DNA of 59,726 bases, filler included, from Sluysia triapertura (Eukaryota), in the NCBI GenBank assembly GCA_046118255.1. It is 5 parts of 5 records of this genome, joined end to end, with 100 filler letters (N's around TTAATTAATTAA, not from the genome) between each part and the next. Parts side by side here need not be neighbours in the genome. Positions count along the whole stretch, not along the records: positions 22,392 to 35,358 come from JBJNIA010068288.1; 4 more parts are not named here. One strand, written 5' to 3'. Both the position numbers and the translations under genes were made by a program. Numbering within the stretch: position 1 is the first letter of the stretch; every line of letters starts with the position of its first letter. Below, one piece after another: positions 10,844 to 49,256 of the stretch. The notes under the pieces were generated by a model. That model saw only the letters and a list, made by a program, of their open reading frames with translations, was not told where the DNA came from and did not search any database.

Positions 10844-10943
10844 NNNNNNNNNNNNNNNNNNNNNNNNNNNNNNNNNNNNNNNNNNNNTTAATTAATTAAN
10901 NNNNNNNNNNNNNNNNNNNNNNNNNNNNNNNNNNNNNNNNNNN
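10844..10943. other. Artificial contig spacer (N44-TTAATTAATTAA-N44)
   Basis: Six-frame stop linker inside a 100-bp N block, identical at four places. Confidence 0.98.
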
Positions 10944-12807: not shown

Positions 12808-13620
12808 GTGTTAGGTTGTTATTCAAAATGCATTAAAATTATTTATAAATATCTAAAATCACTTAAAAAATATTTATTTTCTAAAAAAGAAAATTATTTT
12901 CCAAAAAAGAAAATTTCTACAAAAGAAAATTCGCTTCTACATATATGGAACAGAAGCTTATAGTTTCATTGGCTGATGACTAGTATAGAAACTAGCACCA
13001 ATGTAATGAAAATCACCATTTTATGATTTTCAGCGCCATTTGTAATTTGTATACAAATTTTCTTTATAACCGACAAGATTGTGAATCAACATATTGAATT
13101 TTTAAACATTTCGAACAAATTTAATATACGAGGGATTTTATATTCCATGAAAGTGTAACTTATTTTATTGTTAAGGTGATTTCGATTTTTATAAATCAAG
13201 ATCCTAAAATACAAGAAAAATCAATTGTTAGCTTTAATATTGTAAGAAGCCCTACATATAGGGGGGAAATTTTATACTTAAATTTTAAAAGCAATTAGGT
13301 CGAATATCCCAAGAGGATATAGATCATAAAATAATAATTACTTCTTATTTTGTTTTTTTATTTTTTATTATAACTTATTATTATGTTATTTAGTTTAATA
13401 TAATTGAAAAGTAATTTAGTTTTTTCTTTATTGTTCTATTTAAAATTAAGACACTCGTAACAAAATTGTTAGGAACGTGTTAAAGATAACATTATACTAA
13501 AATTCTTAACTCATTAGTTGCAGAAGCGCCAACTACTAGTTGTAAGATGTTTACTGTAACCGGACCCTGCTCAATTTTTTATTTTTCCTTAGGTTTAGCT
13601 TTAAGAAAACCACAGCATAA
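12808..13620 (-). repeat. Dispersed ~0.8 kb repeat R1, copy 1
   Basis: Reverse complement shares aacctaagg..gagcaggRtccggttacagtaa, tgctagtttMtatactagtcatca and terminal caacctaa with 54113-54932 and 22955-23748. Confidence 0.8.
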
Positions 13621-14456
13621 GGGACTTTAAGTCCACATTGTTTCAACATAATTTTCTAAATGAGTACAATAAACAATTTATTATTTTCTAACGCCTTAAA
13701 TGACTTTATTAATCAATTATTTTTAATTAATAGTTTAATCAATGAACGCAATAATATGACTCAACGAATATTAACCTATCATAATTGGTGTCTTGATACG
13801 TTAATATCAATACAAATGTTCGTGTATTACTTGAAACCGGTTCAACTACCACAATGGTAAATGCAACTCTCTTGAAACGTGATCAAAGATCTACCCTTCA
13901 ACGAAACATTAACAAATAGTATCACTTTCGATGTTGTTGGTGCCAAAGAATTACAATAAATTATTGGTGACAAGAAAGTAATTATAGAAATCTTCATAAT
14001 AATAGTAATAAGAATGGATTCGTCGAATAGAAATTTTTTCGATTTTGATTTTAAACAAACTTTATAAATATCTTAGAAGACATAAAGGAATATCTGAAAC
14101 TGATGGAAGTGGTTCATCAAATATTGCCGAAGAAAAATTACACAACAAAGATGTGCAAGGCATTACGAATACCCAAACTCCTCAATTTATTACCTTCTAC
14201 TCCAAAACCAGAGTAAAACTCAAGTGGAAAGTTTAAGTCATTTTTCCACGCATGTAATGCTCTTTGAAACTTTAATTTTGTAAATACACTACATGTAAGT
14301 TTTATATTTTTTTATTGCATTTACCATTACAAAATTCTTACTCTGAGTTGTAAATTTTTCCCTAACGAGTTAATCGAGAATTCAAAATTCAAGCTTTCAA
14401 GTTAAAATGTTAGTTCAGACATTTTCATCAGATTTCACACTTTATTGTCCGCATAT

Positions 14457-14510
14457 TTATTATTATTATTAATATTATTATTATTATTATTAATTTTATT
14501 ATTATTATTA
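14457..14510. repeat. Imperfect (TTA)n microsatellite
   Basis: Directly visible. Confidence 0.85.
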
Positions 14511-15701
14511 CCGAAACTACATGTAATTTAAATAAAAGATTTAAATTCATTTTATCTAACAATTTAATCATACTTAAATATTGTTATGATAAGATGTCTA
14601 AAATTTCGAAATGTCAATATTATTTCAATTTCGATGATTTAATTTAATCGCAGTTTGTAAAACTAATTTTTGTCGCTTTAAATTCCAAAAATTTAACAAT
14701 AAACAAATTTTAGTCAGTTAGATTTACTTGCAAAATAATTTTTGTATTTGTCCAATAATTTTTTGAATTTCATTCTGCAAATCCTACTTATAGTTAACTT
14801 CAATTGTATGGTCAAATTCTTTCTGAAATCAAAATCATATAAATGATACTAATACATAAAATAATATAGTCCATTCCTATATAATGGTAATTTTTTTATT
14901 GTAGTATTAGTTTGGCCATATAATTTATTTGTTTTTTATACAATATGTTAGTAATTTTGTGCTTATTCGTACTTGTCATTTCTATTCTTGCATATTTTTT
15001 CATTTCTACAACGATTCCGTTTGATGTGTAACATTTTCTGCTTGCTAATAAAGTAGTATTCCACTTCACATTTTTATTTTTCCAATTTTGTTTTCTTTTA
15101 CTTTCTTAAGTTAAATGAACTTTTTGAACTACTTTTTTCTCGATTTTGGTTTTTAAGTATTTTTTATAAAATTACTGAGAATAGTGGAAACTTACAAGTT
15201 TCTTTATAAATTATTTTAAGATTATTATTTCAAATTGTATTCTCCTAATTTATTTATTTAAAACTTTTAAGAGATTCTTGTAACTTCTACCTAATTATTA
15301 AGTGCCACGTTTTCAATTGTTGTTTGTACTTCAAGGAGAATATTAAAATAGCCTTTGTTAACTGCTTTAAATGAAGAGTTATTGAAACCATTTATTAATT
15401 TATATTAATATTTTAATGAACTAAATAAGTTATTTGTTATAATATATATCAATAAATACATTATTCGATATTTTTCTCAAGAGGATGGATAGAAAATTAA
15501 CTAATCAAATGAATTATTCGAGTGAGTTCATCAATCATATGTGCTTTAGATTAGGTGATTGTGTTAAAGACACTTTACTACCACAAAAAATAATTAAAGT
15601 ACAATAATACAAGGCTCAAGAATGGAATTAATTCAAGTTCTTAATGATTAATAATAAGAACTAACATCATAAGAATTAAAAATAAATTTGCCGTGTGTTA
15701 C

Positions 15702-15938
15702 TTGAGAAAAAATAGGATCTGAATCATAATTGTAAATTTTATTACCACTATTTGATCTATTTAACGATTTCTGGTTGGACTGTTTGTATGATTCTGCATT
15801 GAATGATTCAACTTTAACTAACTGTCGTGTTAAATCTTTCACATGAGCTTTATGCTTTTTTTGAATTGCATATATTTGATCGCGTGCATCTGACAACTCT
15901 GTTTTTAACTTTGATACTTCTGATTCTAGATCAATTGT
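15702..15938 (-). CDS. CCDC186: CCDC186-like coiled-coil protein, exon 5
   Basis: tttcag|TIDLESEVSKLKTELSDARDQIYAIQKKHKAHVKDLTRQL...; the KKH...KDLT.QL motif is typical of CCDC186; donor at 15701 is tentative. Confidence 0.75.
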
Positions 15939-16699
15939 CTGAAATGAACATAAAATATTTTAAAACACAAAATGCGGATGTTTGTTTTAACATATAATAA
16001 TTTAATACAATGTATAAAAGATGGGCAATATTAAGTGAAGTTGCGAAGAAGTACTTTTGCTATTGTCAAGGCAGACAGAAATTAACGTTAAAGTGTAAGT
16101 ATAATTAATACATTTCTCTTGTAATAATAATTTAATAATATAATACTGTGTAACACTATAACAATAATAATAATAAACTTAAGGTACTTAAAAATAAAAC
16201 TAAATTAAATAATAATTTTAAATACTTTTTAAGATCCTAAGATTCAAAGTCTCAATTATAAGTACTTTATTAAGACCTTTTAAAGTTCTTAAAAATTTTA
16301 ATGTAAGTAGAAGTTATAAAATACAAAATTATAACCTAAAAGACCATTATAATTTAACTGCTTCGTTTACAACATTTACATTTGATTAAAAAGTTATACT
16401 AATTTATTTTTATCTCGAATTAAAGGCTCTCCTCGAATTATTATCTCTAATTAACGTTGGATTGTGTACCGTAAATTTTCATCACATTTACTTAAAATCA
16501 TTTATTAATTTGTTGAATTTTTTTAAATAGCTACTGAAAATCATAATTTAAAATCATGTTAACATTTTTAAATTAAATTCTTTAAATCTGTAAAATCCTC
16601 TAACATTGTTGTTTATTATAAATTCATTACTTAAATTATATAACCTTAATTTCAAAAAGTCAGTCAATATTTAATTTTCACAACCATTTTAAATAGGTT

Positions 16700-17600
16700 C
16701 TTAAAGAAATATTTTTCACGTCCTATATAAAGGACTTAAAATCACATTTAACTAAACTGGTATCAAGTTTTATAACGAACCTTGAACTCAACTTAATTAA
16801 ATTTTTGAGATTCATATAAAAAATTTTGCAGAGACGTTTGTATTGTACATTGAATTCCGTAATTTTTCTTTCACGCAGTTCTTTTATAAAAATCCTGTGA
16901 AACAGCCTTTAAGTGCGCAATATTTTCAACTTTTAATAAGAAATATTATCATTATAAATTTACATTCAATCGCAAACTAAAACTTTCTTCCATCTTTTCT
17001 GATAATTTGCTTAATGCATTTATGACAGATTTTCTTCCCGAATGCATTTTATCATTTTCACATGATAAACACATCTACCTCAATGGTACTGCATCTTCTG
17101 ATATAAAGTATTTAAGGAAAGTTTTACTATTGCATTTGTATCTCGAATATTTAATTTTACGCTTTATGCTTAGTTTTACTTGCGCAATGTGCTTAAGCTA
17201 CACTTGTGGTATTTTTCTTTTGATTTAACTTCCATATTTTTAGACAAATTATTTGATAATTTTATCATAATTCGAAATATGTTTAGAATGTATTTCTTAT
17301 GTTTGGAAAGTTTTCATTTAATTCATACTGAATAAGAAGTTATGATAGAAAGTTAAGGAGAATTTGAGTTGCTTTTATGGAAATTCCGTTATTATTTTGC
17401 TATATTACAAAATTGTTATTTTAAAGTTGTAGAAATTTTATATATTAATATGTATGGATGTTTTTGAGGTTTTTGAGGTTTTTGAAGTAGGTTTTGTGAT
17501 TTAGATTTAACGTTTTGTTATTATAAATGTGATATTGTTTTTGTAGTTGTGAAGTTTATTTCTTTATGCATGAAATTTTAGATGAAAAGGTTGAACAAAG
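16700..17600 (-). pseudogene. Possible further cassette remnant (C/A-rich arm plus decayed Cys-containing ORF) inside a CCDC186 intron
   Basis: 17400-17590 is G/T-rich on + (C/A-rich on -). Minus strand 17230-16800 reads as a broken ORF (YKCNSKTFLKYF..MCLSCENDK..). Confidence 0.3.
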
Positions 17601-19379
17601 TTTATCTAAATACATTTATAAGCAGCTAAAGGATACGATGATAAAATTATGTGTTATTATGTGTACTACTCAATTATGTATTATTTTACCCGGTCTTGCT
17701 GATCTAGATTCTGACACAATGCATATGCTCAGGACTCTCAAAGTTATGAAGATTATAGTCCAATTTTAACTTTATTAAAATTTTGATTTAGAAAATCAAA
17801 TGATGTTTCCATAAGTAACAAGTGATAATATAGATCATGCAAAACTTGCTAAGTGATGATTTTAATTTCAATTAGTGGTATCTATGAGTCCAGTTCGTTT
17901 GAATTTAAAACCTACATATGGAACGTGATTGGAGTGACCATAACGACGGATTGACCACAGAAGCGGGGAAACACGACTCATCCAGAATCAAAACCTGCCG
18001 ATATCCGGAGGCACCACAGTTTTTAGTTTTTATAAGCTCATTTTTTTGATGGCTATAAAATTTTTATTGAGACAATCCTATTAAATTTCGCCTTCTTCTT
18101 TGAAATTAATACGTATTTGTTGTCTTCTGGTTTGAGTATAAGTGTAAAGCAAATAAATTCAAAGTTTATAAACGTAATGCTTCTAAATGTAAAGCAATTA
18201 AGTTTATTAAAAAATTCGCAAGCATTTAGGATAGAGAATTCTAAACTGAACGTAATAATGAAATTAAAAATTAATACGGTATTGGAAATAGAGATGAAAA
18301 GGTGATAAACAAGTTCGATTCCAATGGGAACACTAGCCTTAAATCACCGAAGTTTTATAAGTGCTACTGCATACGCTCTCAAATTAATAATATAATCGTC
18401 AAGCACCTAAACAAATAATTTTAAACAGGAATTTAAGCATCCTCGACACACAACATTTGTTCGTTTCGGATCACTATGATAAATACAATTTATATACTTA
18501 CTGAAAGTTCTGATTCATTGCAGTATCCTCATATTTACTTGAGTTTTATCGTCGAAACCATATGCACTTTCATCACTTTCACATGAATCTTTCTTAGAAC
18601 ATCTGGTACGATTACCTTAGGTTTATCTACTGAATTTCTTAATGCTTCATTTGAACTGTCTTCATAATTACCTGACTTATCGTTCGCAGGATGAAAACTC
18701 GTTATAGCGTCTGGCAGAGTGGAATAAGAGTTTTATCGCAGGTGAATTCCTTTTAATTTAAATCACTTTGGCAATTAATATTGCAATCATTCTTAATTCC
18801 TGAAGAACCCTTTTGACATGAGAAACCTTGTCGATACTTAACATTTAGGTAGGATGATAATAGATTTATTTATCAAGCAAAATACTACACAAAACTTCAC
18901 ACCTGTTGAATTCGAATACCGTTTATGATACGTCACAAATTAAATAATCGCAAGTCTATATTTCGGATTGTCTTCAGAAAACTGTCTCGGAAATTCTTTG
19001 CTTAATTTTTTCAAGTCTGTTTATTTCACATAAGGAGACATCACATTAATAGGAAGATTGATTGATAGATTGACCTTAAATTATTGCTAATTAATAATAA
19101 TCTCATTCACAACTTATGAAACATTTACAGATAAACATTACACCTTTTAAAAGGATCCATTCTTTGTGACCCCAAATAAGAAGATTATATTTTTCAATTT
19201 GTCACTTATACGAAATATGAACTAACTTATCACTAAAAATTAAACTCTATTTGAATTTCACTTTTATATTAACACAGGAATGTTTGCGCCTTTCTTTGGT
19301 TATGTTTTTATAGCTTGCAACAGTATTATATAATGTATTTAAGTGTTAATTAAAAATAATAATTCCAATTTTTATTAAC

Positions 19380-19677
19380 CTGATTTTGAATTTTTTCTTT
19401 CTCTTTTTGATATGTACATGAATCTGATTTACATTTGTCTTCCCAATAATTCAACTTTATCATTAAATCTTTTCCATTTCGCTCCAATTTCGTTATTTGT
19501 GACTGTAACTTGTTTTGATTATTTAACCATTCTTGCTTTTCAGATTGTAATTCAGCATTTTTGTCGGATAGTGATTGGATAAAATTTAACAATTCAGATT
19601 CCTTAAATTGAAAATTTGAAGCAATATTTTCGTTTTCCTCAATTCGGATTTTAAGTTCTTCATTAGTTTCTTGAAGC
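19380..19677 (-). CDS. CCDC186: CCDC186-like exon 4
   Basis: tacag|g LQETNEELKIRIEE...EKIQNQ|gt; phase 2/0, consistent with neighbouring exons. Confidence 0.8.
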
Positions 19678-20166
19678 CTGTATATTAATAATTAAATAAT
19701 TTTAAATAATATTTTAACGTAACAATAATTCTGCTCTTGATTTCATTGTAGTTCTTTAAGATAAAGTGTTATAAGAGTTCTCTTTTAATTGAAAAATTAT
19801 TCTTATTGAATGATTCAATATAATAGCAATTTTCGTAATTATTTGTGTGAAATGGAAATTTTTTTATAAAATCATATAAATTGATTTTCAGTTTTATTTA
19901 TGAAAATAAAATTCTAAAACGAGATTGATTTGATTTAATTTTATTTGAATGATCGGTGCTTCATTTCATTTAATCCAACGATCACCACAAATTGATACTA
20001 ACTCTATCAATCTATTCCTACTTGAAAAGGAAACTTATATATTTAATATATTTCCAAAATAAAAAAATGACTCCAGAATAATGAATACAAACTAATTTTC
20101 TGAGTTGTTTTCGAAATCTTTAAATACAGAAGTATTGTTTTATATGATGCAAATATAAAAACAAAC

Positions 20167-20366
20167 TTGGAACATTCAAGTTGCAAAGATTCCACTTTCT
20201 TCTCAAAGCTTTCCAAATATTTGATTCTTTCAACTTGCTCTTCTTTTAAAAATGTTAAACTTTTTACATTATCACGAAACTGTTTAATTGATTCTTCTTG
20301 ACATAGTTTATCCGCCTCTGCGTATTTTAAGCGTTCTTTAAGTTTAAGCAAGTCTTGATTTTGTAA
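20167..20366 (-). CDS. CCDC186: CCDC186-like exon 3
   Basis: ttag|LQNQDLLKLKERLKYAE...LECS aa|gt; phase 0/2. Confidence 0.8.
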
Positions 20367-20397
20367 CTAAATATATAAAATTATATTAAAATATTAC

Positions 20398-20619
20398 ACT
20401 AATAGTTTCTTTTTGACTCCTTAATTCAGATAATGACTTTATATGATTTTCATTCAAATCTTTGTATGCTAATTCCTTTTTCCTCAGTTCTTCTTTAATT
20501 GCTTTTAAAGTATTAGTTAAAGAATTTGACTTTATGTCTTCTGAATGTTGATATGTTTTTACAATTTCTTGGCAATTCGTTCTTAATGCATTATTTTCTT
20601 CTCTCAAAACTACCAACAT
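20398..20619 (-). CDS. CCDC186: CCDC186-like exon 2
   Basis: tatag|MLVVLREENNAL...KETIS|gt; 74 codons, phase 0/0. Confidence 0.8.
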
Positions 20620-20674
20620 CTATAAAAACAATTATAATATAAATAATAATATAAATATAAGCAACACAACTAAC

Positions 20675-21298
20675 GCGCTGCATGTCTTCATATTTTTTCT
20701 TTATATCTTTATTTCTATCAATTTCTTCTTTGTATTTCACTTCCTCATTTTTCAATTTTTGTTCTGCGACAGTAACTGAAGCTTTCAGATTAATAAGTTC
20801 CTTTTCGTAACTTGAAGAATCCGTAAATCTATTTTTAACTTCTTTGAGAAGGCGTTCCTTGTCAGAAGTTAAAGAATCAATTGTTACCTTTTGGTCTTTC
20901 AATTTTTGATCTAAATCTTTGGTTCTTTTTTGCAATTCCAGAAACTTTTGTTCAGACTGAGCATATTTTAATACCAATGATTCCTTTTCCTTTTTCATTT
21001 CATCAATAAATTTTTTCGAATTATCAGATTTAGTTTTTAATTGGGACTTTAAATCTTCGTTAAGATTTTTAAGATCATTATTTTCAATTTGTAATTTTGA
21101 GACTTTTGTAAATGACGCCTCAATGCAGCCATTTAGCCTAGTTATTTCACATTTTAATACATTGTAATCATCTGAAACCTCATTCAATGAAGTTTCCCCA
21201 TTATCAGATTCAGGCACCGCATCAGTTTTTGCAGCACAATCTAATTCACTTTGGCCATTAAAATTTGTGTCACATTTTGAGGAATCAATATCATCCAT
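20675..21298 (-). CDS. CCDC186: CCDC186-like exon 1
   Basis: ATG at 21298; coiled coil with KEKESLVLKYAQSEQK resembling the CCDC186 EKE.MVMKY..E motif; ends DMQR|gt after 208 codons. Confidence 0.8.
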
Positions 21299-22291
21299 AA
21301 ATAAAAATTAAAAATAATAGAAGAGTTTTTAAAATGTAAAAGTAAAAATAATTAATTTTATATACTTAAAATTATTATATCTTATAAAAGTAATATTTAA
21401 AATTTGTAAAATATTTATAAATTAAGAATCAAAATTATTAATAATGTGTCGTGTTTAATAAAAGAAAAAACAAAATATTTTTTTGAAAAAATATAAAAAT
21501 GCCAAATAATACATTTTCAATTTTTATTATTGTTTATGTGATCATAGAAAGTGGTTTAGAACTGTTCCATAGTTTAAAAGTTTAAATATTAAGGAATTAA
21601 AAGTTTCGTTTCATTGAGAGCGAAAGTTACTAAAGTTATTATATTTGTTGAATCGGCAGTGATTGTTATTTGAATCTGAGATTGTTTTTTAATCTATGAT
21701 TTGATAATAATGATAATATAATATAATAAAAATAATAATTAGAATTTTAAAACTAATTCTTAGAAATTAGTATGTATTACATATGTATTAAAGCTGGAAA
21801 AGTACCTATTCATTGATAAAATTCAGTAAATGTTCTGAATACAAAAACACAATAAAAAAGAGAGAATATATTCAATGGAAAACGCATTTGACGAGTATTT
21901 AAAAAAACAACTATGAAATAAAATTGTTATAAAATACTACAGACGAAAATTTTTCAAAAATAATTTAAACACAAAACTAAAATAAAAATATCGATTAATT
22001 TACTCATTAATTAAAACCTTTCTAAAGATTTTATTACGACTTAAATTTGCTCTTTATAGAATACTGGTTTACTCATTCACTATTTGTTAAAGGTTATTTC
22101 ATTGTGAGTTTGTATATAATGGTTATATTTATAAAGGGTTAAAATATCTAGTGTGTGACATTTCATTATTTAAATACGTGATATTTCTTATTGTTGAACT
22201 TTACGCACCTTATCATTGTTGTGTCTTTTATACTTTTTATTTCACAAATTATTAATCAAAACCCAATAATTAAACAACTTCAGAATCTCGA

Positions 22292-22391
22292 NNNNNNNNN
22301 NNNNNNNNNNNNNNNNNNNNNNNNNNNNNNNNNNNTTAATTAATTAANNNNNNNNNNNNNNNNNNNNNNNNNNNNNNNNNNNNNNNNNNNN
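22292..22391. other. Artificial contig spacer
   Basis: N block with TTAATTAATTAA. Confidence 0.98.
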
Positions 22392-22499
22392 ATATATTTA
22401 TTTGTTTTATTTTAAAAATTCAATTTAATGATAATTTCAACTACATTAATTTTTTATTTAATAAAATACTAATATTTTAAAATACTATGATCTAAAATT

Positions 22500-22671
22500 A
22501 AAAATACCTTTACAATTGTTTCAAGTTGATTTTAGAATTTAAAAGGTAGGTTTTGAAGGTGAGTGTTATGTTGGCAAAACTTATGTAAAATGAATGCTTT
22601 TGATGAGTGTTTTGGGAAATATTTAACAAAAATTTAATAAAATTTATTAAGGTTATATGTTGGCCGCCACA
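22500..22671 (-). mobile_element. Truncated 5' arm of the cassette family
   Basis: Reverse complement tgtggcggccaacatataaccttaataaattttatt...cataacactca aligns with the start of copy A at 23928. Confidence 0.7.
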
Positions 22672-22954
22672 CTCAAATCATTGACGACTTCATGTTGAAA
22701 ATATAAGATTATGTGTAGAGATGAAACAAAATAATCTTTTTTGTTATATTTACGAAATAAATCGATAGAAAATATAGTTATTTTTTTTCTCTTCATTTTT
22801 TTGATAATTTTTGATAATTTTGCTCCTTAAAACTTTATTAAAATATTTTAATTAGCCAATAATATGTAGGTTAAATGAAACACACTTTTACAATACGAAA
22901 TTTTATTAAATTACTATTTTTGTTTAACGTATTATTTCTGGTGTGATTTTTCTA

Positions 22955-23748
22955 ACATTTAACCTAAGGCAAAATATTTAAAGTAAACTTCTTATGTCAT
23001 AAAGAGGTCGTTTCTGTAACTAAAAAAAGCTAATATTTTATCTGAATAGTAATGCTCCTTAATTAGGGTCTTAACAAATGTTTAATTACTGTGTAATTAT
23101 TAATTCTTTAAAAAACTTATTAATTTACTTTCAATTAGACGACATTTAATTAAATAAATACAAAATACCAGCTATATTATGCAACAATACTAAAACTTTA
23201 TAACAATAATAAGACTAAAGATAAATAGAAAAGTTAATATTTTAAAAATTGAAGCTCCGATAATGTTTCATTTTATATCTGTATTATCCTTCAATATATC
23301 TGGGACTAATAATTAAGAGTTTCAGTAAATTTTATAAGTTCAACTTCGGAATATATATATAAATAATATATAAATAACCAAAGCATGGAACTCTAGACGA
23401 ATATTGAATGATTGTTTCTAGGTGGATGTTGCAAAAGTGTCGAATGTATTGTTAATTGTGATAAATTACGAAGAAATTCCAAAAACACCAAAATTGTAAT
23501 GTAGCAAAATCAAAAATGGTACTTAAAATATTATATTTCAAAATAGCTATTAACTAACATTCAGTAAACTGTAATTTGTTTATTTACTAGTCGTCAGCCA
23601 ATAGGAATCGACTGAATTTTCTAGAACATTCTAGAGCTTCTATTCAATTTTTAGAAGAGAATTTTTTTTGTAAAAATTACTTTTAAAGATTACTTTTTTC
23701 AAAAATACATTTTAAATGATTTTAGAGGGTTGTAATGACAACCTAACA
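22955..23748 (+). repeat. Dispersed repeat R1, copy 2
   Basis: aacctaaggcaaaata, tctgtaac, actagtcgtcagccaat and terminal hairpin ggttgt-aatg-acaacc followed by taa. Confidence 0.7.
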
Positions 23749-24933
23749 TATCCGGAAACACGAATTTTTGAAGGTCTTGCTCAGATCGATAATAAATCAG
23801 ACAATTTAATTTTGATTTAATGCAAAATTTATGGAAATATAATGATTTGAATGTAACGTTTCATTTTGACTATTAAAATAGTTATCTAACTGAAATATGT
23901 TTTTTCATTTTTAATTTCCAATAGTAATGTGATGGCCAACCCATGACCTTAGCAAATTTTATCAAAATTTATTTTAAATATAATACACATTTTCAAAAAT
24001 TTATTAAAAACATTTTTTGCATAACACTCAACCCCAAGATCTACAACTCACATTTTAAATTCACAATTCGATAAAAAAATAACTAACATCATACCACAAG
24101 CTTGTAAAATTCGTCACAACCGTTTTTATATCTTATTCCTTTTCAGATCCACCAAAATCAACTTACATTTTTCAAAACATTTCAAACCTTATAACATACA
24201 AACCACAATGATATTCAAATCCATCAAATTACATTAAAAATTCATCTAAAATATTTTATTCTTCATTTCAACTACAACCACGTTCGAAATTAACTACCAG
24301 ACACCTTCAGATTAATTTGAACATTCTAAATTCGTGATTCGTTATCATTTAATCATTACTTTCACACAAAACTCTAACGTATATTATCATTCATTCTAAA
24401 CACTCATGTTATTTCAAAATAATTAAATTATAACTTTCAATACTCAAGCTCATCTTCAATCAGAGACATTATTTCAATTAGAACATCAAGGTGTATTCTA
24501 ACATCCATATAAAGTATTCATATTGTTTCAAAATATTTAACACCTAAATCTATTTTCACTTGAAATGAGTAAATAGCATTAAAAATTACACCAAAACGCT
24601 TTACACATTATCTTATAACAACAGCCTCACTATTACACCTTAAAACCTGATCCAAGACAGGTAACAATAAGCTGTAACAACACAAGAGAATAGTAGTGCT
24701 TTGAATTGCCAGGATTTTAAATATGTTCAGAAATAATTAAAGAATTAGAAAGAAAGCTTGTGATATAAGTTTCAAAAAGAATTTATGTATTTAGTAATAA
24801 TAGTAATAATAATAACATTCTTGTTATTATTATTACTATCATCAATTTATTTTTCATTATTATTTATTATTATCATCATTACTCTATTTTAATTTCATTA
24901 TTTTTCAACTAAATTAAATTCTATCCGATGATT

Positions 24934-25057
24934 GCCACTATCACTGATGACATTCTTTAGTTGTCATCCTTGATAGTGGCTTATTGTATATTGCAAGAGT
25001 GAATAGTAGTATTACTGGTTGTCCAACCAGAGATTCACTCTGGTTGGACAACCAATC
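24934..25057 (+). promoter_or_regulatory. Twin-hairpin module of copy A (putative promoter or origin)
   Basis: gccactatca-ct-gatgaca / tgtcatc-ct-tgatagtggc stem; perfect 17-bp stem tggttgtccaaccagag-attca-ctctggttggacaacca (25016-25054) running into CCAAT; about 110 bp before the ATG. Confidence 0.65.
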
Positions 25058-25164
25058 AAAGAAAAACCAGAAAAATAGTTTAAAAAATTAAAATTGTAAA
25101 TTTCAAGTAGTAAAAAAAGAGGGTCACTGAAAAATTATCTCTCAAATTTATTGATAACTCAAAA

Positions 25165-26190
25165 ATGAAAATTTATGGTACTGTGAATATTAAAGTTTGT
25201 TATTAGGAGATATTACTAAATTGCCTCTAGAATCTGTAGTTAATTTAATTTTGATGTCTCCTTTTCTAAATAATTATGTGTCTATACCAGGAACCTTAAT
25301 TGGTGCTTTAGAAAGTAATTTGCACTTATGTGTTACTAAATTTTCTGAGGCAAAACATGAAGATATACGAAAACATTGTAATTGCTGGTTATCCAATGAT
25401 TTACCGTGTCACTTACCTTATAAACGTTTATTGTGTTACAACAGGACTTAGCAAATTTTAATTTTCACATTGTTTGTCTAACATTGTGTACAACATTTCA
25501 TCACAAAGACTGGTCTTTAATTACACCTAATTTAGCACTTGTAAATCAGAGAGCTGATAAAGTGGATATGATTAGAACTATAATTAAACCCATCGTTACT
25601 TGGTTGCGTGCCGGCATTCCGTTGGTTAATATGAATATAGTAATCTATAAAAGAGATTTAACTAAATATACATCTCAAAATGATTTAAAGGTAATAGAAG
25701 AATTTGAACGATTAAAGAAATTATTGCTTGATACTCTCATTAATAATATTGATGTACAAATTAAACAAGATATGATTTTTGTATATACGAAGATCTTTTA
25801 CATGTTAATTGATATAATTAGAAAATTGCCCGATAAGCACGAATTTAAATCGAAAAAGTTTTGCTTCAATGAACCACCAGAAAACGATAATGAAGATAAT
25901 GCTATGAATGAAGAGTTTAATGACGTATTAAAATTTAAAGAAAATGTTAAATAAACAACCAATAAAATATAGAAGTCATTTAAGCAGACACTATTCAAGT
26001 CAATTCAGCAAGAATGCTTTTTGCCCATTCAGTAGTGACAACAATGGTGTATGTATAAAGAGTGGAATTGGCTGCATCTATGCTCATACAGTTTACGAAT
26101 CGGTGTTTATCAAGTAAAACGATACAAATTATGATTATCATTCTTCTAGAATAGCAGAACTACTCATGGGTCTCATTCATCGACAATGAA
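25165..26190 (+). pseudogene. Frameshifted Macro-like (Macro-TIR family) domain, TIR-start remnant and CCCH finger
   Basis: GDITKLP..VVN...PGTLIGAL...KHEDIR..NCWLS..LP.HLPYKRLLC and WLRAGIPL...IVIY; later KYRSHL.RHY..FCPF..C.YK..GCIYAH; frameshifts near 25200, 25440, 25950 and 26050. Confidence 0.65.
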
Positions 26191-26714
26191 TTCGACTACC
26201 AACATTTTAATCATGGGCAATCAAGAAGTAAACAATTTTTGTAGTTACATTAATGATATTATAAATTTTTATTGTTATTTAGATAGTGAAATATATCGGA
26301 ATAAATTTTTGTGTGATTTTTATTTGTTTTTTAGTAATGAAGATTTTATAGTTCATTCTCGTTTTGTAATTTTAAAGAATAAAATTTTAATAGATTTTGA
26401 TAATGTGTTCAATAAATATAATGTAGTTAGTAATTTAAATTTAATTTCAAAATTCTTAATTTATCATAAAGCCAACAAGTAACAATGCAATTTGGTCATA
26501 TTATCATACTCAATTAAGACCACTTCAATTAAGCGTTTTAGTGTAACTTTCGTAGCAGCCGGGTAGCATCAATAAACGTTCTGATGAATTTACTTGTTTT
26601 AATAAGCGAATATGTGTTGAGTATACATTGTTTATTTATGTAAGTGATTGGCTATATCACTTGTATCCAGTATTATAGGATATTTTAGATTTGTTTGCAT
26701 CTACTCCATATTTA

Positions 26715-26835
26715 GAATTATGGAAGAATACTTGAGTGACATAGAGAGTAGTGATCGTAGTGATACTAGCAGTGACAATGATGAAGAAACAGTGATGAGT
26801 AGTTTTACTTGGCGAAATATGAACAATTTTTAACG
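26715..26835 (+). other. Acidic N-terminal peptide, possibly a piggyBac-like transposase remnant
   Basis: MEEYLSDIESSDRSDTSSDNDEE...FTW; a similar acidic peptide lies at 53770-53845; no catalytic domain seen. Confidence 0.25.
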
Positions 26836-27599
26836 TTTTTTGCGTCCTGCGAGTGCTATATTGCAAAATGTAGTTGTACTGAAGGGGTTGATTTAGTGAA
26901 TCATTCGGTTCTGTTCATCGAAATTAAACTTAGCAAAGGATAAATTTATGTTACGCCAATTTTTTGCAACCTTAGTTAAATATGTACCGAACAACATTTT
27001 AATTTTTATTGTTATTTGTTAAATTGTACATAGAAAACCTTAAATTTAAATGGTGAATAATGTATCAAGCTAATTATCTGCTTGGTTAGGAATGGCGCTA
27101 TTATTTCAGACGTCATCAATATTAATTCAACTAGAATTTTAATAAGTAAAATAAATAATTTTAATAATGTACACTTTATGACATAGTTATGAAAAATGGT
27201 TTATATATAAATGATCGAATTTATAATTATTCTCTGAAGGTTAGTTCTGAATTTATTCCTGAGGGTAGAGAGAAAAGTGCTATTTTTTATAGTTAAAATA
27301 AGTTTGTTCTAAATTTATTTACTCATAAATGCATTAAACTAATAATACATGTTTGATTGTTGATGATAAAGGTTTATTTAATTTTAGAATTTATTTAAAA
27401 TTATTTAAATTAATTGTATTTAATTTTAATAATTTAAATAATTTATTAACAAATAAAAGACACTCTTGACCAAAAAACATAAATTTATTTAATAAAGATT
27501 GTTAAATTTTCAGTCTGGTTGACCTAAAAATTTTAATTTACTTCTAGTAATGAATTGTTTGTGCGGCAAAAAGATACCATAGGTTTAGTGGTTCTGATT

Positions 27600-28900
27600 T
27601 GAAATTTGTTGACCTTTGGAATGTCGTCTACTTCATTGTTTCTTAATGATGTGATAAGTCTGCTTATTCTATCATATGTTGATTGAAGTTGTCGTCTGTG
27701 GCTTTGCCGCGATCAATTTCTTCAATATTTAGATAATATCTGCATCATTTGCCAAACTTAACACATATTTCAAATTCGTTGATCTGAGTACATTGTGCCA
27801 AACGTTTGTGTTAAAAAAGTGCTGTATTCGAACTAATCATATCCTTATTTTTGTTGTTGAAATCGATGATTGGATTAAATTTATTCCGTTGCTTACTTTT
27901 ATATATCGTAGCTTGTTGCGCTTGGGAGTTTAGCATTCTTTTAAACATTTGACTTTACCGAACATTTTATATGACTGGTACATTACATCTTCGTCTATCA
28001 CTTTGTTATCCAGCATAATGTGATTAACATTACATATAACAATGTTTTGTACGTTGGACTTGAGATCTATATGATCTTGATTATTTAATGATTCAAATAA
28101 CTGTTCAACATATGGTAAATTTCTGTACAACACTTAGCTACTAATTATAGTAATCTAGAACGATTGCTGCGAGCGTTTTTTTCTAATTTTTTTGAATCGT
28201 CTAGACATGATTGTGGAACATACCAATCCAACATTGAATTAAAGACATTTAATTTACCCCAATCTAATTCTGAATAAATTAATTTTATCTTGCGATCTAT
28301 CAATGATATCAATAAGTACTACACAAATAGTCATAATAATTTCTCCATTGTACTTGGTATTTTTGTAAATGATCATTTACTACAAAAGCTGTCATATCAT
28401 GTTTAATAGTTCTATTAAGATCAGATGCATTCATATTGTAGGAATATTTTGAGGGTTCTGACTTATCATTAAAAGAAAATATTTTATTAGCCTATAAAAT
28501 AAAATTAATTTCGAAAACTCAACAATGTATTGTCGTTGATAAGGTATGCTTATCCATTCATATATTTTTCGATTACTATCACTATCTTTTAATTGATGTA
28601 ATGTTGGCAAGACTAAATATAAAATGAAATCATTTTGAGCTTGATTACGAGTACCCATCAAGTCTGTCCATAAAATAGACGATAATTTTAATCGATGTTC
28701 TAAGTCAAGTTTACGGTAACAAATTTTTGTAAACTTTTGAATAAAATTTAGTATTATGATTGAAAATGAATTATCATTGTAAAGGTTTATAAAATACTCT
28801 AATTTAGCATTATTCATTGATGATGACTTTAATCGATTACACATAAACATATCAGTCACAATAACTTTTTGTCTTTAAATTGGAAACTAATTTTTTATAA
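27600..28900 (-). pseudogene. Decayed intronless cargo ORF B, function unknown
   Basis: ORF pieces 28431-28859 and 27930-28133; the frame continues past the stop (TPKRNKLRYIKVS...FFNTNVWHN). Confidence 0.55.
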
Positions 28901-29042
28901 CTGTGTCCAATTACTCTTACTATTATCTTTTCTATTCTACTTGTTCAGTGACTGAGTTTTTCACTGTTTACTTGCTTTTGTAGTACCAAAATTTTAAAAC
29001 TAATTATTTTTTGATTTGAAGGATAATTTTTATAATTTTTGT

Positions 29043-29101
29043 TGATTGGTCATTCAATCAGAAAAGCAGTACAAAAATGAGATTGATTGGATGTCCAATC
29101 A
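29043..29101 (-). promoter_or_regulatory. CCAAT palindrome of copy B
   Basis: tgattggtcattcaatca ... tgattggatgtccaatca; 18-bp arms with 2 mismatches. Confidence 0.65.
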
Positions 29102-29789
29102 CTATTATGATAGGTATGTGTGTATATTAACCATACTGAATTAGCCAACCACAAACATCTAATGAATCAGCAATTGAAAAATTGTGGCAAGCAATTGAAT
29201 TTTTGTGAGAAATCATCTGTCGTAATTGACAGAAATTAAATTAAAATTTTTGCTGTTTACATGTTAATAGTTATATAATAATAATGAAAATAATAAAAAT
29301 GGAGATAATAATGATGAAATGAAAATAATAATAATATCATTAATATAATTATATTAAATACATAGATCTCGTTTTATCTTTTCTTTTTCTTGACATATAA
29401 ATAAATAAAATTAATTTAAATAAGGTTTTATTTGGTTAAGTTGTTAAAAATGATTAGAAGTATGCGTTTAATGTTTTTTAAAAGTGTTGATGTTTGAGTG
29501 TTTAAGAATTGTGAGCTTGAAATGTTTTGGATTGATTTTGAAATATATATTTGGTAGTTTGAAATGTGAATAGTAATTTTAGTGTTGTAGAATTGTGAGC
29601 TAAAAATATTTTAAATGAATTTGAACTGTCCATTGATGATTTTGAATGTAAGTATGATTTTAATGTTATAAAGTTGTGAATTTAAATGTTTTGAAATGTA
29701 AAAAGGTTTTAATAGATCTGAGAAAGTAGGATGTAGATTGTATCTTTTTGTAATTTTAATAGGTTTTGTTTTGAAAATGAAGCCATAAT

Positions 29790-30410
29790 GATGGCGAAAT
29801 TATTTCCAATTAGGAAGATAAGATAATTTTTGATTCTGCTGTAGTTCATGGAAGAAAATATTAATTGTATTGTTAAAAAGTGTAAATATCAATTAAATAA
29901 AGTATCACAGATTCGAAAATTTATTAATAAAGTAACAGCTAAACTTAATGTTCATTCATATACTCATGTACTAAATTTAATATAGAAAAGTGCAGCAAGA
30001 AGATCTCATCAACACCTTATCCTAAGGAATTATATTGGTTGGCAATAAAAGCAAGAATATAATTCAAAATCATCACAATAATTTACAAATGCTTACATTA
30101 AGGAAATCTTGAATATCATTTAGATATAAATCGAAAATTGGAAAGCAAGATGAATATTTCATTGAGACTTAATAATCTGTACAGAATCCCACAATGATAG
30201 GTTGTATACTGTTTATGTATCAAAAATATACAACCAGTTACCAGAGAATGTCAAATTACTAGAAGATTATGAAATACATAAGGAAAAGGTAAAGTTCTTT
30301 CTGTTTCAGAAATACCACAGTGGATGATTCATTTTAAGTGCCTTTGAGTACATACTATTCAGTAGATATGAGCGTAATATAAATTAATATATTATTATTA
30401 ATATCATTAT
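29790..30410 (+). mobile_element. L2/CR1-clade LINE 3' remnant
   Basis: Broken RT C-terminus (MEENINCIVKKCKYQL..IRKFI...AAR...ELYWLAIKARI*FKII.IIYKCL) and an L2-style tail gcctttgagtac...gagcgtaatataaat...tattattatta. Confidence 0.8.
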
Positions 30411-31314
30411 TCAAACCGTATAGAAAATAAAATAAAATCCAAATTATAATAATCTCAACATTTTTCTGGTACCATAGTTACACAATTATTTAACTAAATA
30501 AACGTCATTGTTATTAAAAGTACTTTTTTAAATTACAATAAGTAATAAAAATCATATTAAAAATTAATGTTGTTAATATTATCAAATATTATTATATTTT
30601 CTTAAAATTACATATAAGACTACATTGAATATTAATAATGTTTTTTCTGTATTTGATTCTTCTTATAATAGACTTTCAGCTTTTTTGAATTAATTTCTTT
30701 TACTGCGTTTTGAGTAGTAGGCATTTATAATAGTAATTTTTCTTGCTAAAACAAATTAATAACTATATTTAATTGTAATAATGATATTATCATTTCTCTA
30801 AATTTATCATTATTTATACATATTTTTTCCAGTTTTAGCTTATATTCTATTTTAATGTAATATTTTAACACTTTTTCAAAACTTTTATAATTAAAATTAA
30901 GCGAACTTATAACAAAATCTATTTTCATAATTAAATTAAAGAATATTAAATAAGAATATGTAATATCAGAAACTAAATTAATTTGGTTCTTTTATTTTTT
31001 GGATATTTCAATTTTCAATAATAATTTTCAATATTACTAACAAGATGGATTATCTTCATCTTAAAAACCAATATGATTAATAAATGGGTTTAGTAAATTG
31101 TCACATTTTCAATTGGAATTTTTGAGGAAATCAAGTTATGCTAGAAAAACTAAAACCATTAATAAATTAGTATTAGTTCTGGAATGATAATACTTTCAAA
31201 TAACAAATGAAATAATTCTTAATGCTTGTAATTCTATACCTTTTCTTTTTCGGCTAAGTATAGTGATAATTAATTTAAAAACCGACTCTAAATAAAGAAA
31301 TACAAAAGATTAAT

Positions 31315-31420
31315 AAAATAAAATAAAAATATATAAATAAAAATATATAAATAAAAATATAAAAATAAAAATATAAAAATAAAAATATATAAAGATTAAA
31401 TAAAAATATATAAAGATTAA
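31315..31420. repeat. A-rich minisatellite (aaataaaaatatat-like units)
   Basis: Directly visible. Confidence 0.8.
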
Positions 31421-32099
31421 TTCTGCTTACATTAATCTATTTGCAATAATTTTAAATATTATAATTTTATCAAATGATTTATAATCACTATATGATTAAA
31501 TCGTGCAAGTTGGTTCTGAAATCGTAGTTCATCGTAGAGATGGAAGTGTAAAAATTAAATTAAAGTCTCAAATCTCTCTCTCTCTATACTCAAAAATAAA
31601 TTAAACATTTAACACTCTAAGACATTTGTTTAATAAATAAATTTTATTATTTTATATAAAATTTTATTTTTATCAAAATTTTTCAATTAAAATTAATTTT
31701 CATCAATGACGAATTTGAAACATATTGACAAATACGATTTAAAATTGTTCCATTACACTTGATCAAAGCTATGTAATCTATTTATTAATTCATATATGAA
31801 AAACTTCCATTATATGGTGACGGTACGACCAATTTTATCTTCACATGAATTAATTTTCTTCGAAAGTTATTCAGTATATAAATTCTGTTAGTGGTTATGA
31901 GTTGGTTTGTCTTTATTTCTGTGCCTTAGTATTCATTTTTTCAGTTCTATTTTAATAGAATCATATGCATTTGCGTAATTCTACCAGAATTGCAGCACGT
32001 TTCACTCAAAGTTTCGTAAATTCTGTTTTTGTATCCTTTAGTTTATTTCGTGATTTAAGATCATTTTAAGTTTTTCCTTTTTAGTTTTATTTTCTTTAA

Positions 32100-33625
32100 A
32101 ATTTTATAATAATTTTAATTTATTAAAAAAATCAAATGAATATAAAACAAATAACAATAAATTTAATCAAAAAACGATTAATCTTAATAATACCTACAAA
32201 GTGGTTTTAGTAGCGGGTGAAGATAAAAATAGGGAAAGTATTTTTAAAAACTTCAGAATAAATAAGTCAGCTAATGATGGCATTAACCAATCTCATCTTA
32301 AATACAAGTTCGAAAATCTACCAAAACTTGTAATTAATTTTTTAAGTAATGATATTAGTGATAGTGATTTAAGTACTGATATTACTGATTAAAATATAGA
32401 AACTGAAAGATTAGTTAAAAATGTTGAAACTCTAAACTTCAAGATTTCTAGATCTAATCGAGATGGCTTTTTTAAAAAAGGTTTATATTAAAATAGGACT
32501 CTAAATCAAGGAATGTTTTGATTTGAATGGTAAGTTTTCAATGTATCAATGTATCACTTTAAAACTTTTGGTCACAATGCTTCTAATTACGAATATATAT
32601 TAAATAATCCAATCTGTTTATATAATTCGGACTTTTTCGAATTAACGGAATGAACAATTCTGTAAGTATTCATCATGTAGCTACTTCCCACAAATGTCCA
32701 AAATAAATGAAAATTTTAAAAAATAAGAAAAATTATGACTGTAAATGAAAAACCAAATTTGGAAAAGGTCTAAATTAGTTTTCAAAATATTTCGTCTATT
32801 CAAAATAAAATTATAAAATTATATTTTAAATACATTATATTATTTTCGAAGAAGCCAAAGAAGTTTTGATAACAGGAGTTTTTAATACAAAAATGAATGT
32901 AAAAGATGTTCCATGCAATGAACTGCCAAAAATTAAAACTCATAAATATTGTTAGTAATAATGCTTCTGATGTAAAAGTGAATGACCTGTTAGACACATG
33001 ATGAATAATGTTTGGTATAAAAAATGTCGAATATAAAAACTTATCAAAAGTAACATTGAGGAGCTTCATTAGAATTATCGAGTAAATTGGAAGAAATAAC
33101 AAATTTTATGGATAATGCAGATGTACTTGGAGAATTATGCAACAGAACGTTTACATTTTATTTAGTTAAGCATGTACTTTTAGAGTGCAAAAATGTTGTC
33201 TAAAACATGATCCTAATGAGAAAGTTTGGTTTAATTATTAAATTAGTGAGTTAAGAAGAATAAGACTTAAAAAATAAAAATTAAAAAGCTGAAAGAATAT
33301 AAATCAAATAAATAAATAAATTAAATAAATCAAATATTAAATGAGAAATTCAAAAGAAGTATACCATACATGAATTTGAATTTAAAAAAGTTAATGAAGA
33401 TGATTTAATAAGGATCTATTGACTAAATACCAAATAGATTTATCAGAAACAATTCAATTTCTGGATTTATTAAAAATTAACTTTTCTTCATGTGAAAAAG
33501 TATCTGTTGCATTTAAATAATCACAGACTCGTATCAAATATAACATTATTTCCAAAACTGTTTGAAAAAGCAGTTTACAACAAAAGCGATCAAAGTTCTT
33601 AGGTAAAAATAAACTCATTGCATAA
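32100..33625 (+). mobile_element. Heavily decayed LINE (ORF1 knuckle plus ORF2 fragments)
   Basis: FGHNAS..HHVATSHKCP zinc-knuckle remnants; KVWFN, FEFKKVNEDDL and SNITLFPKLFEKAVY..FLGKNKLI resemble CR1/L2 ORF2 motifs. Confidence 0.6.
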
Positions 33626-35358
33626 ACTGCGATTTTATTTCCGACAAATATGCAGAGTTATTCAAAACCATTCAAACAGTCAACCGATTTACCAGTATAA
33701 AATACAAATTCAATTGTAGACTCGCTAAAAACAAAACTTAGATAAAATAAACATAAAATAAACTTTAAGAACTAAAAACAGCTTAAATTAAATTAAATTT
33801 TTTTTACACATAAAAAGTTTCAACTTTAACTTAAACATTTAAGATTAATAAGATTATTAAACATTTTAGTTTCACTGTATATTTTGCCAGATAGTTTACT
33901 ATTCCTTCCACTTCTCTCTTTATATTTTTAATACCTCTTGATACGTTCCCAGTCATTCAATTCTTATATTTGTAATAAACTTTATTATACAAAATATCAC
34001 TGTCAACCACAAACATATCATATTTTATATACATTTTATAGCGTTCCTTTCCTCAAACAATCACAACGTTAATTCAAACAATAACACATCAGAATCTGAT
34101 TTATTCAAAAAATTAATACTCTACACGCTCAATACGAATTAATATTAGATCAAATATAGAAATAACTTTTCTTCTACGTAATCTATGCTGTTCAACAGAT
34201 TTTCAATATATAATTAATGTTTTACGAGTCCAAGTTGTAACCGATTTTTACTTGTATGATGAGCAGAATTATGTTTTTTGAAAATAAAATATTATTGTGC
34301 AGAGAAATTTGCATTCAAATAAATCGAGAATCTTACAGTCGAAAAACTCAGTAGTAATCTTTTAATATTTTATGTATCCAGTAAAATTTTGTTCAAACCT
34401 TTTAATAAGCATTTTTATTATAAAGTGAGATTTTTTATTGTATATTAAAACAGAGTATCATAATTCATTATTTTTGTTATAATTGAGAAACTTAAATGAA
34501 AAATAATTTTAGTCTATAATAAATTACAGTTTGGAATAAGCAGTATTAAGATTTAAATAAATCTTAAACGAACTTTGATACTAACGTATACTATAATGAA
34601 TTTATAATGAATGACTTCTCTAATGGCCGAGTAGAGAGTTAAACATTTCCTTGAAAAACTAAAATTTAATATGTTAATGTAATTGAAATTAAAACAAAAC
34701 TTTACTATAACAATCTGAGTCAACATAAATTGTTGCATAGTTTTCAATTAGATATAAACAAGGGTTTTGTCATCAAACTATCATCAACCAGAGTATTTTC
34801 ACGGATTTGGGTTAAAATCAAACAATGTTAAAGCTCACTTAATCAGTCTTAAGATAAACAATATCTTTTCATGTTCAGTAAAATCCACTGGGTTCAATAT
34901 CTATATATTCACATTGAAAAATGGTTTCTCATACAACATCGACTAAATAAACCCAAATACTTAACATTAGAGCAGATTATTAAACAGAAACAGCTATTTT
35001 AAGAATAAAGTATGATATTTTAAATGGTTTTCACTGGTTTTAATGTGTTTTTATAGTTATGTTAGATAGAGTAGATCGTGACATTATTTTGTGACGTGTT
35101 TCTCATTTGGTTCAATAAGACGGTTTGAATAATATTTAAAAGAAAGAAGACAACATGTTTTGTAGAATAACGTGAAGACACATGAGGTTTACATATATGT
35201 GGGTTAAAAAAGAGAAAATATTGGAATATCATTACGGAACTCCGTATTTATTTGACAAATGACACCTGAAATAAGAAACACAATTTTAAATTGCTTTTGT
35301 ATTACAGGAAGTGCCCCATTTTTAAATCTGAAAAATTGAATTAACCAGCATTTTCAGC

Positions 35359-35458
35359 NNNNNNNNNNNNNNNNNNNNNNNNNNNNNNNNNNNNNNNNNN
35401 NNTTAATTAATTAANNNNNNNNNNNNNNNNNNNNNNNNNNNNNNNNNNNNNNNNNNNN
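35359..35458. other. Artificial contig spacer
   Basis: N block with TTAATTAATTAA. Confidence 0.98.
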
Positions 35459-35652
35459 TGAGGGCTTGGTTGGACGAATTCTTTGAGTCAAGACCGGGAG
35501 ATTTCTATCGCCGAGGCATCGAAAAACTTATTGAATGATGGGAGGAAGTTGTAAACAACAACGGAGAGTATATTATTGATTAAATCGTTGTAGTATTTTT
35601 GTTTAAAATAAATTTGAAAAAAAACGCTCATGAATTATTCCTCAACCCAATA
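35459..35652 (+). mobile_element. Mariner transposon 3' end with TIR and TA
   Basis: RAWLDEFFESRPGDFYRRGIEKLIE*WEEVVNNNGEYIID* (35461-35583), then aaaacgctcatgaattattcctcaacccaa-TA. Confidence 0.93.
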
Positions 35653-37042: not shown

Positions 37043-37112
37043 TAAAATTAGAATTGTTAGACGTCATTAAATGGACTGATCGGAATTCGAACCGTCTAAC
37101 AATTTCATTTTA
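37043..37112. repeat. Isolated inverted repeat
   Basis: aattgttagacg (37052-37063) pairs perfectly with cgtctaacaatt (37093-37104), extending imperfectly outward. Confidence 0.7.
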
Positions 37113-43797: not shown

Positions 43798-43957
43798 TTA
43801 ATGTAATTAAAAAAAGAATTTATGTTACAAATTTTAATCATAATTACAAAAAAAGCTCAAAAGTAAATCTTCATTTTGCAATTTTTTGTCGAACCAACAA
43901 AACGAATATTGTTATAAATTTCAACAAAAATTTTGAAAAATTTACAGTTGACAAGAG

Positions 43958-49213: not shown

Positions 49214-49256
<43 letters not shown>

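Follow-up and report, generated by a model that had tools for sequence, protein, structure and literature searches.

Burro, a giant Gypsy retroelement of planarians, has an internal region of up to 25 kb and a total length above 30 kb (PMC6431247), so that by arithmetic its long terminal repeats (LTRs) measure ~2.5 kb or more, and it carries captured ubiquitination and apoptosis domains (PMC6431247). LTRs of the CsRN1 clade of Gypsy start with the motif TGTGGYG and the general LTR 3′ consensus is YNYAACA (PMC3601003); most LTR elements make 5-bp duplications (PMC6839031), and flatworm solo LTRs that have duplications and transcripts of their own are on record (PMC4558846). Among cut-and-paste elements, Ginger1 and Ginger2 have inverted repeats of 40–270 bp and 4-bp duplications at CCGG/CCGT (Ginger1) or RTATAY (Ginger2) (PMC2836005), and GingerRoot has inverted repeats of 100–150 bp, a 6-bp duplication and mostly TA ends (PMC6839031). 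Host sequence is acquired differently by the two types: DNA-level capture by GingerRoot keeps introns (PMC6839031), whereas LTR-mediated capture uses mRNA, with template switching as the LTR-retroposition model (PMC5131818).

The cassettes described here, found in a window of 59,726 nt of Sluysia triapertura DNA, resemble each of these systems in part. With Burro/GYPSM1 they have in common a probable flatworm host, an implied LTR of at least 2.5 kb, ubiquitination-related cargo and great abundance; the likeness is one of description, not of sequence, Burro cargo lies in the polyprotein or in an upstream accessory ORF whereas cassette cargo lies inside the putative LTR, and UBR and CCCH are not among the cargo listed in the available text (PMC6431247). 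CsRN1-clade LTRs are similar in the TGTGGYG motif (matched by four of our seven 5′ ends, or heads), the TG…CA ends and an AATAAA near the 3′ end, but the LTRs used for training average 330 bp (PMC3601003), and the cassettes are 8–10 times longer and contain ORFs; assignment to that clade needs a reverse transcriptase (RT) or integrase sequence, neither of which lies in the cassettes. In LTR-mediated retrocopies, intron-free host pieces are likewise joined in sense to LTR sequence, although there the retrocopy stands between LTR-element sequences and here the cargo stands within one TGT…ACA unit (PMC5131818). The ta-TRIM solo LTRs of tapeworms are a flatworm precedent with duplications and continued transcription, but they are short and non-coding, mostly with 4-bp duplications (PMC4558846). 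Ginger1 and Ginger2/Tdd agree with the cassettes in TGTNR termini, lengths of 2.6–7 kb and the presence of extra domains (PMC2836005); their long inverted repeats, target motifs and transposase are missing from the cassettes, although non-autonomous copies may lack a transposase, and the PHD, OTU and Ulp1 domains of Ginger1 are fused to the transposase rather than free cargo (PMC2836005). GingerRoot and Pack-MULEs have integrase-like ends and captured gene fragments that vary between copies (PMC6839031); unlike GingerRoot, the cassettes have no long inverted repeat and their UBR piece is uninterrupted, a 6-bp flank match in one copy being the sole partial fit. The available texts of PMC11410931 and PMC8532177 give no LTR structure.

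Copies, heads and leaders

The window consists of five parts (1–10843, 10944–22291, 22392–35358, 35459–48708 and 48809–59726), each 11–13 kb long and separated by four identical spacers (10844–10943, 22292–22391, 35359–35458 and 48709–48808; N44-linker-N44, with stops in all frames), so that adjacency across spacers is not biological. Its GC content is 22–30% in most bins, it includes spliced animal genes, and ~35% of it falls in cassette segments, several of which (X, Y, Z, G and D) reach part ends. The features are as follows.

23928–26477, plus strand: copy A, a complete solo-LTR-like cassette of 2550 bp
23928–23941, plus: attachment-site-like head and 5′ terminus of A, where homology with X and C starts
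23923–23927, plus: left copy of the 5-bp target duplication, AGTAA
26478–26482, plus: right copy of this duplication, directly after …GCCAACA
23928–24900, plus: leader of A, with a C/A-rich, G-poor tract, a purine-rich box and an AAT/TTA microsatellite
24934–24981, plus: hairpin 1, also conserved in C and D
25016–25054, plus: hairpin 2, with a CCAAT box at its end and arms that repeat the GGACAACC core of the head
25194–26482, plus: cargo of A, four adjoining frames of 85, 176, 61 and 110 aa
near 26010–26093, plus: Unkempt-like CCCH finger of A (Pfam, PDB)
27500–29935, minus: copy B, with the leader of A and an ORF at 28431–28874; left coordinate approximate, first ~16 nt of the head missing, 3′ end not found
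42654–45899, plus: copy C, 3246 bp, with the same leader as A and ORFs of 211, 203 and 125 aa
48809–51204, plus: copy D, with the shared leader, its head cut by the part start, containing a Cys-rich piece (49721–49990) and a 385-aa ORF
38751–41723, minus: copy E, 2973 bp if a 10-nt inverted match is its end; no target duplication
39173–40028, minus: cargo of E, a putative UBR1/UBR2 N-recognin fragment, from a ClpS-like domain to a DDH motif
58106–58376, plus: copy G, head and first 290 bp, ~70% identical to E
22392–22671, minus: copy X, with an A-like head, cut by the part end
1230–2378, minus: copy Y, with no 3′ end found; it has a head, a C-rich tract and an ORF of 216 aa that contains an internal repeat of 52 aa
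7993–10843, plus: copy Z, with head, C-rich tract and decayed frames, running to the part end
17202–17775, minus: fragment H of the A/B leader, in an intron of a coiled-coil host gene
22835–23780, plus: repeat II, which ends near a TGT-type motif at 23731; other copies at 54115–54960 (plus) and 12780–13712 (minus)

The seven 5′ ends reported in the first-pass annotation (23928 and 42654 on the plus strand, 22671 and 2378 on the minus, 7993 on the plus, 41723 on the minus and 58106 on the plus) are all present as described, and they mark true element ends in this AT-rich animal genome, since homology begins at TGT and is absent outside it: three of the 21 pairs align inside TGT (E/G, z 11.4, with an alignment that begins exactly on TGT; A/X, z 6.9; A/C, z 3.3) and none outside (largest z 1.7). 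Composition also switches at TGT, the first 250 nt inside being C-rich and G-poor (six of the seven heads reach at least the 97.8th percentile of the window, and X the 90.7th) and the flanks lying at the 29th to 74th percentile of the same measure. All seven heads start with TGT-R-R, and every one is among the top 1–12 sites of the window in leave-one-out profiles; the pattern TGTGRYGGHC has five matches against 0.16 expected from 100 shuffles, a figure that is partly circular because the pattern was built from these sites. The 5′ flanks end in AGTAA, CTTCG, TTGAG, GCATC, GTTTT, CATCC and GTTAT. At least two subfamilies are represented among the heads, with one leader common to A, B, C, D, X and H and another shared by E and G; Y and Z align to neither, and have only motif and composition in common with the others. 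We considered and rejected the heads as primer-binding sites, the TGG not being kept in A, E and G.

Some features of the surroundings were also noted. The heptamer ATGCATC precedes the Y and E heads on their own strands (2379–2385 and 41724–41731), by target preference or by chance, and a TGTGGTG-type site at 18008–18018 (minus) lies just upstream of H and is followed by a GC-richer stretch, with no inside alignment to the heads. Two cassette pairs are head to head (22671/23928, 1256 bp apart, and 41723/42654, 930 bp apart), with spacers that are not mutually homologous, and A and B stand tail to tail, arrangements that suggest clustered or nested insertion. Dispersed repeats unrelated to the cassettes occur at 11014–11457/56791–57265 (68% identical) and 91–213/46524–46641 (72%).

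Homology extending beyond TGT, which had been named at the outset as grounds for abandoning the idea of integrase-made ends, is thus absent from all 21 pairs of the seven heads and is found only in repeat II, a separate family, at the sites 23731 and 54916, neither of which is among the seven ends of the first-pass annotation. There, homology runs for ~800 bp 5′ of the TGT-type motif (z 5.2 outside, between these two sites), with a decayed copy near 12809 (minus). The copies of repeat II measure ~900 bp, are 58–61% identical and have a conserved CCAAT-containing block ~150–200 nt before the TGT-type motif; a purine run precedes the motif at the 23731 site only. This upstream homology, together with the recurrence of the GGACAACC core in hairpin 2 and of a 19-nt piece of the C flank at 34235, is what one would see if the TGT motif were not a terminus but lay inside larger repeats as a promoter or recombination site, the duplications having arisen by chance. 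We regard that explanation as improbable, given the sharp start of homology at TGT in E/G, A/X and A/C between unrelated flanks, and the same upstream sharing is expected if the two sites are starts of 3′ LTRs after shared internal sequence; repeat II may be the 3′ part of an internal region, followed by a 3′ LTR. The 19-nt match itself is exact (42633–42651 against 34235–34253, in another part), and its surroundings do not align.

Copies A, B, C and D have the same order of parts, namely a C/A-rich tract, a purine box, an AAT/TTA microsatellite, hairpin 1, hairpin 2 with CCAAT, and ORFs. In this subfamily a C-rich leader of 1.1 kb, with two hairpins and with CCAAT boxes, precedes ORFs that are unrelated to one another, and an AATAAA lies close to the end. 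Hairpin 2 starts 1089 (A) and 1079 (C) nt from the head, and CCAAT stands at 1124 nt (A) and 1137 nt (C), a place where E and Y do not have it. Compared with shuffles, four of six segments fold better (z −3.1 to −10.2, the last value for both A hairpins folded together), the exceptions being the C hairpin-1 and the B segments. In hairpin 1 of A, C and D, 7 of 24 pairs are changed on both sides; three sequences do not suffice to prove selection.

The leaders of A and B, which face each other, score highest of the 28 pairs compared (258, z 10.9), and X is not followable beyond 280 nt. Both points would fit large foldback or Mutator-like elements: the ~1.1-kb leaders would then be long inverted arms, diverged and with promoters pointing inward, A and B would make up a single 6-kb element as its two arms, and X would be the right arm of another. 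Such arms are improbable, however, when A and B are only ~61% identical though their ORFs are still long, B has no terminal bases, C and D have no facing partner arm, and A is closed by an end and a duplication of its own at 26477.

3′ ends and target duplications

3′ ends were sought by scanning downstream of each head for CA followed by the 5′ flank. Copy A ends at 26477 (…GCCAACA), directly followed by AGTAA, the five bases before its head, and C ends at 45899 (…TGCAACA), followed by one base and then by its six left-flank bases again at 45901–45906. The first-pass annotation had placed these ends elsewhere and had seen no target duplication. Its ttggcatca for C (45523) lies inside the ORF 45230–45607 and its ttggtcat for A (~26492) has no duplication, so both are discarded, and the absence of duplications is contradicted by the exact AGTAA of A and probably by C, but holds for E. 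The C end fits the YNYAACA consensus at all seven positions and the A end at six. When YAACA was required with the 5-bp flank within 0–2 nt, two of six testable heads gave an end, A at 2550 nt and C at 3246 nt; E gave none, and the sequence left for the search was 1.6–2.9 kb for Y, Z and G and 280 nt for X.

The duplication of A is AT-rich, and its weight depends on what is counted with it. ACA followed by AGTAA occurs once only in the 11.4 kb downstream of the A head, but this combination alone arises in 815 of 2000 shuffles; together with the GCCA match to the head of A itself it arises in 1 of 2000, for a pattern that was chosen afterwards. YAACA with the flank was found anywhere in 363 (A) and 21 (C) of 1500 shuffles, and at 2–4 kb in 70 and 9.

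The ggccatcaca given for E is real (38751–38760): it mirrors the first 10 nt of the A head, and no better inverted end lies downstream of E. The match to the A head stops after these 10 nt, and 5 of the 10 bases differ from the inverse of the head of E itself. Two kinds of end are therefore represented, the TGT heads of A and C being paired with CAACA ends and E having TGT…CACA; in the three copies the lengths are 2550, 3246 and 2973 bp, respectively. AATAAA starts 63–100 nt before all three candidate ends, against a background of 14.7% each for an interval picked after looking. The A and E 3′ regions are weakly alike (z ~2, below the best background windows), and neither a shared terminal ORF nor a shared 3′ module was found among the copies. 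In A (26150–26482) and E (38747–39349), the last open frame crosses the proposed terminus and stops 4–5 nt outside it.

Ends of the retroviral-integrase type, as first suggested, are thus borne out by TGT…ACA, a short imperfect inverted repeat and, in A, a 5-bp duplication, and an integrase probably made them via reverse transcription rather than by cut and paste. The proposal of a Ginger- or IS481-type cut-and-paste enzyme did not survive: no inverted copy of the head, and so no inverted repeat of 40–270 bp, was found at the A, C or E ends, where the E match is only 10 nt, and there are no 4-bp targets of the CCGG or RTATAY kind.

Cargo and the search for a parent element

Eleven frames of at least 140 aa are open in the window, against none in 20 shuffles; eight lie in cassettes, two are exons of host genes and one (51279) is unplaced, and all eight cassette frames run sense to the head. 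Outside the cassettes, a 112-aa frame at 32054–32392 (plus) has no Pfam match of note. The host genes comprise three exons of SF3B3 at 3410–5686, which correspond to residues 577–898 of a 1217-aa relative; the best relative by identity is P0002 (77%), named animals reaching at most 68% among the 120 matches listed. As only these three exons lie in a part of 10.8 kb, the introns on either side must be longer than 3.4 and 5 kb, and copies Y and Z probably lie in them. A multi-exon coiled-coil gene at 15648–21307 (minus), perhaps CCDC186-like, has fragment H within one of its introns. Searches for Rfam families and for tRNA genes gave no match.

Among 1.84 billion representatives, a single relative of the 202-aa frame of E was found, P0121 (35% identity, E 9e-19), and the assignment of the frame to UBR comes from this relative and the two-sequence profile: in the PDB the joint profile matched UBR2 (E 5e-21) and UBR1 (E 3e-12), and in a protein search it matched E3 ligases, whereas the E ORF alone has a weak ClpS match (E 0.014) and E ORFs alone had no UBR match in the PDB. 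Three of the four named UBR relatives, including the top two, are flatworms, from which the host would also be a flatworm. The UBR matches are collinear through three frames, from 40028 to 39173, and the piece is thus frameshifted. Two UBR motifs stand 172 residues apart in two relatives and ~174 codons apart in E, which leaves no room for an intron between them. Being frameshifted and far more diverged than host SF3B3, the fragment reads, by its predicted homology, as captured, processed-looking cargo and not as a working gene.

In A, Pfam zf-CCCH_UNK was matched with an E of 2e-6, below the curated cut-off, and Unkempt in the PDB with 2e-4. The second ORF of A offers a weak lead to a dynein-tail-like helical bundle (Atlas 0.95, with low recognition, 1426); a Roquin-like identity was tried for this ORF and dropped, the PDB search giving it no support. 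The ORFs of B, C, D and Y had no recognised relative in profile, PDB and protein searches; the 385-aa ORF of D found none among 2761 candidates or in the PDB, the first ORF of C had no usable Atlas match, and 14 ORFs gave nothing better than E 0.001 against PHROGs. Single-sequence folds of D and C ORFs have a pLDDT of ~30. The link to PHD domains drawn earlier is not confirmed, the Cys-rich pieces of D and Z having no Pfam PHD match; the candidates at ~8720–8800 and 49800–49990 were a resemblance by eye only, and the D piece is a weak zf-AD match (E 0.003).

For the parent element, Pfam was scanned with the 197 stop-free frames of at least 50 aa, and no gag, RT, RNase H, integrase or transposase was matched; the integrase ORF flanked by such ends that had been proposed as a check is accordingly not among these frames. 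A read-through six-frame scan of one of the five parts, insensitive in that it missed the ClpS signal, also had no match at E 0.01. No two copies flank an internal region within the window, neither a primer-binding site nor a clear polypurine tract was found next to any of the seven heads or the three ends, and self-comparisons of the copies gave no direct terminal repeats of the kind that define TRIMs. Decayed retropepsin-like motifs, recognised by pattern only and with no Pfam support, occur at 2941–3050 (minus) and 13800–13880 (plus), with the short protease-like motif at 3009 and 13827, respectively; the first is ~600 bp before the Y head, on the same strand.

That every copy seen is solitary and lacks a primer site, a purine tract and an internal retroelement region, and that the cargo is different in every copy (best z 3.3 of 300 ORF pairs), would also be expected of non-autonomous Pack-type elements whose inverted ends are only short, which an integrase-like enzyme moves in trans as whole units and in which an internal promoter drives the captured cargo. 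The exact 10-nt inverse of the A head at the end of E would suit such elements, and GingerRoot is known to carry gene fragments (PMC6839031). We nevertheless consider this origin unlikely, if the most serious of the alternatives: described Ginger and GingerRoot inverted repeats measure 40–297 bp, and none is seen at the A, C or E ends; their duplications are of 4 or 6 bp in the available descriptions, with 5 bp only in TDD-4/5; and the UBR piece is uninterrupted.

The cassettes as putative solo LTRs

The evidence favours the cassette as the LTR of a larger retroelement, and on balance we take the copies to be solo LTRs of 2.5–3.2 kb, from several old subfamilies of giant Burro-like Gypsy retrotransposons of a flatworm, with captured ORFs within the LTR. 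This is suggested by homology bounded at TGT, by CAACA-type ends after which the 5′ flank is repeated in A (exact) and C (one base off), by the TGTGGYG heads and YNYAACA-type ends, by AATAAA before all three ends, by the uninterrupted UBR piece with its flatworm relatives and by the sense orientation of all eight long cassette frames; the comparison with Burro comes from its giant size and its captured ubiquitination and apoptosis domains. Against it stand the lack, within the window, of paired copies around an internal region, of a primer site or purine tract and of gag, RT, RNase H or integrase, the other end type of E and its missing duplication, the offset of the C duplication, the frequency of the A duplication in shuffles and the weak likeness of the A and E 3′ ends. 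We infer that the cassettes work like an LTR, which does not imply membership of Gypsy or of Burro.

If so, the full element would have been copied through RNA and its cDNA inserted by a Gypsy integrase, giving TG…CA ends and a 5-bp duplication, and recombination between the two LTRs would then have deleted gag-pol, so that a single LTR remained. The C-rich leader and the hairpin with CCAAT may represent U3 and the promoter, the ORF block a long R region into which pieces of host mRNA were gained by template switching, and the AATAAA 63–100 nt before the end may open a short U5. Such a solo LTR would remain a promoter–ORF–polyA unit. To our knowledge, LTRs do not usually have an R region filled with ORFs.

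TG…CA ends are ordinary; what is unusual is a bounded unit with a fixed, structured 1.1-kb leader and exchangeable protein-coding cargo. We tentatively propose, as a possibility that goes further than LTR identity itself, that a flatworm retrotransposon lineage keeps accessory genes inside its LTR, between promoter and polyadenylation signal, and that these are swapped between subfamilies by capture of host mRNA. No description of exchangeable ORFs inside flatworm LTRs was found in the literature searched, although the primary Burro description or Repbase may already have this layout. The cargo so gained would comprise a UBR N-recognin piece, an Unkempt-like CCCH finger and several orphans, and each solo LTR would be a complete expression cassette after the element is gone; many copies could then yield truncated ubiquitin-pathway or RNA-binding decoys or, alternatively, small RNAs against the parent genes. 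If the cassettes are LTRs, captured host genes would be spread, not deleted, when solo LTRs form, flatworm genomes would have in them a dense source of orphan genes and of fragments of host genes, and the idea of planarian giant retroelements as an "evolutionary tinkerer" would become testable through expression and small-RNA data.
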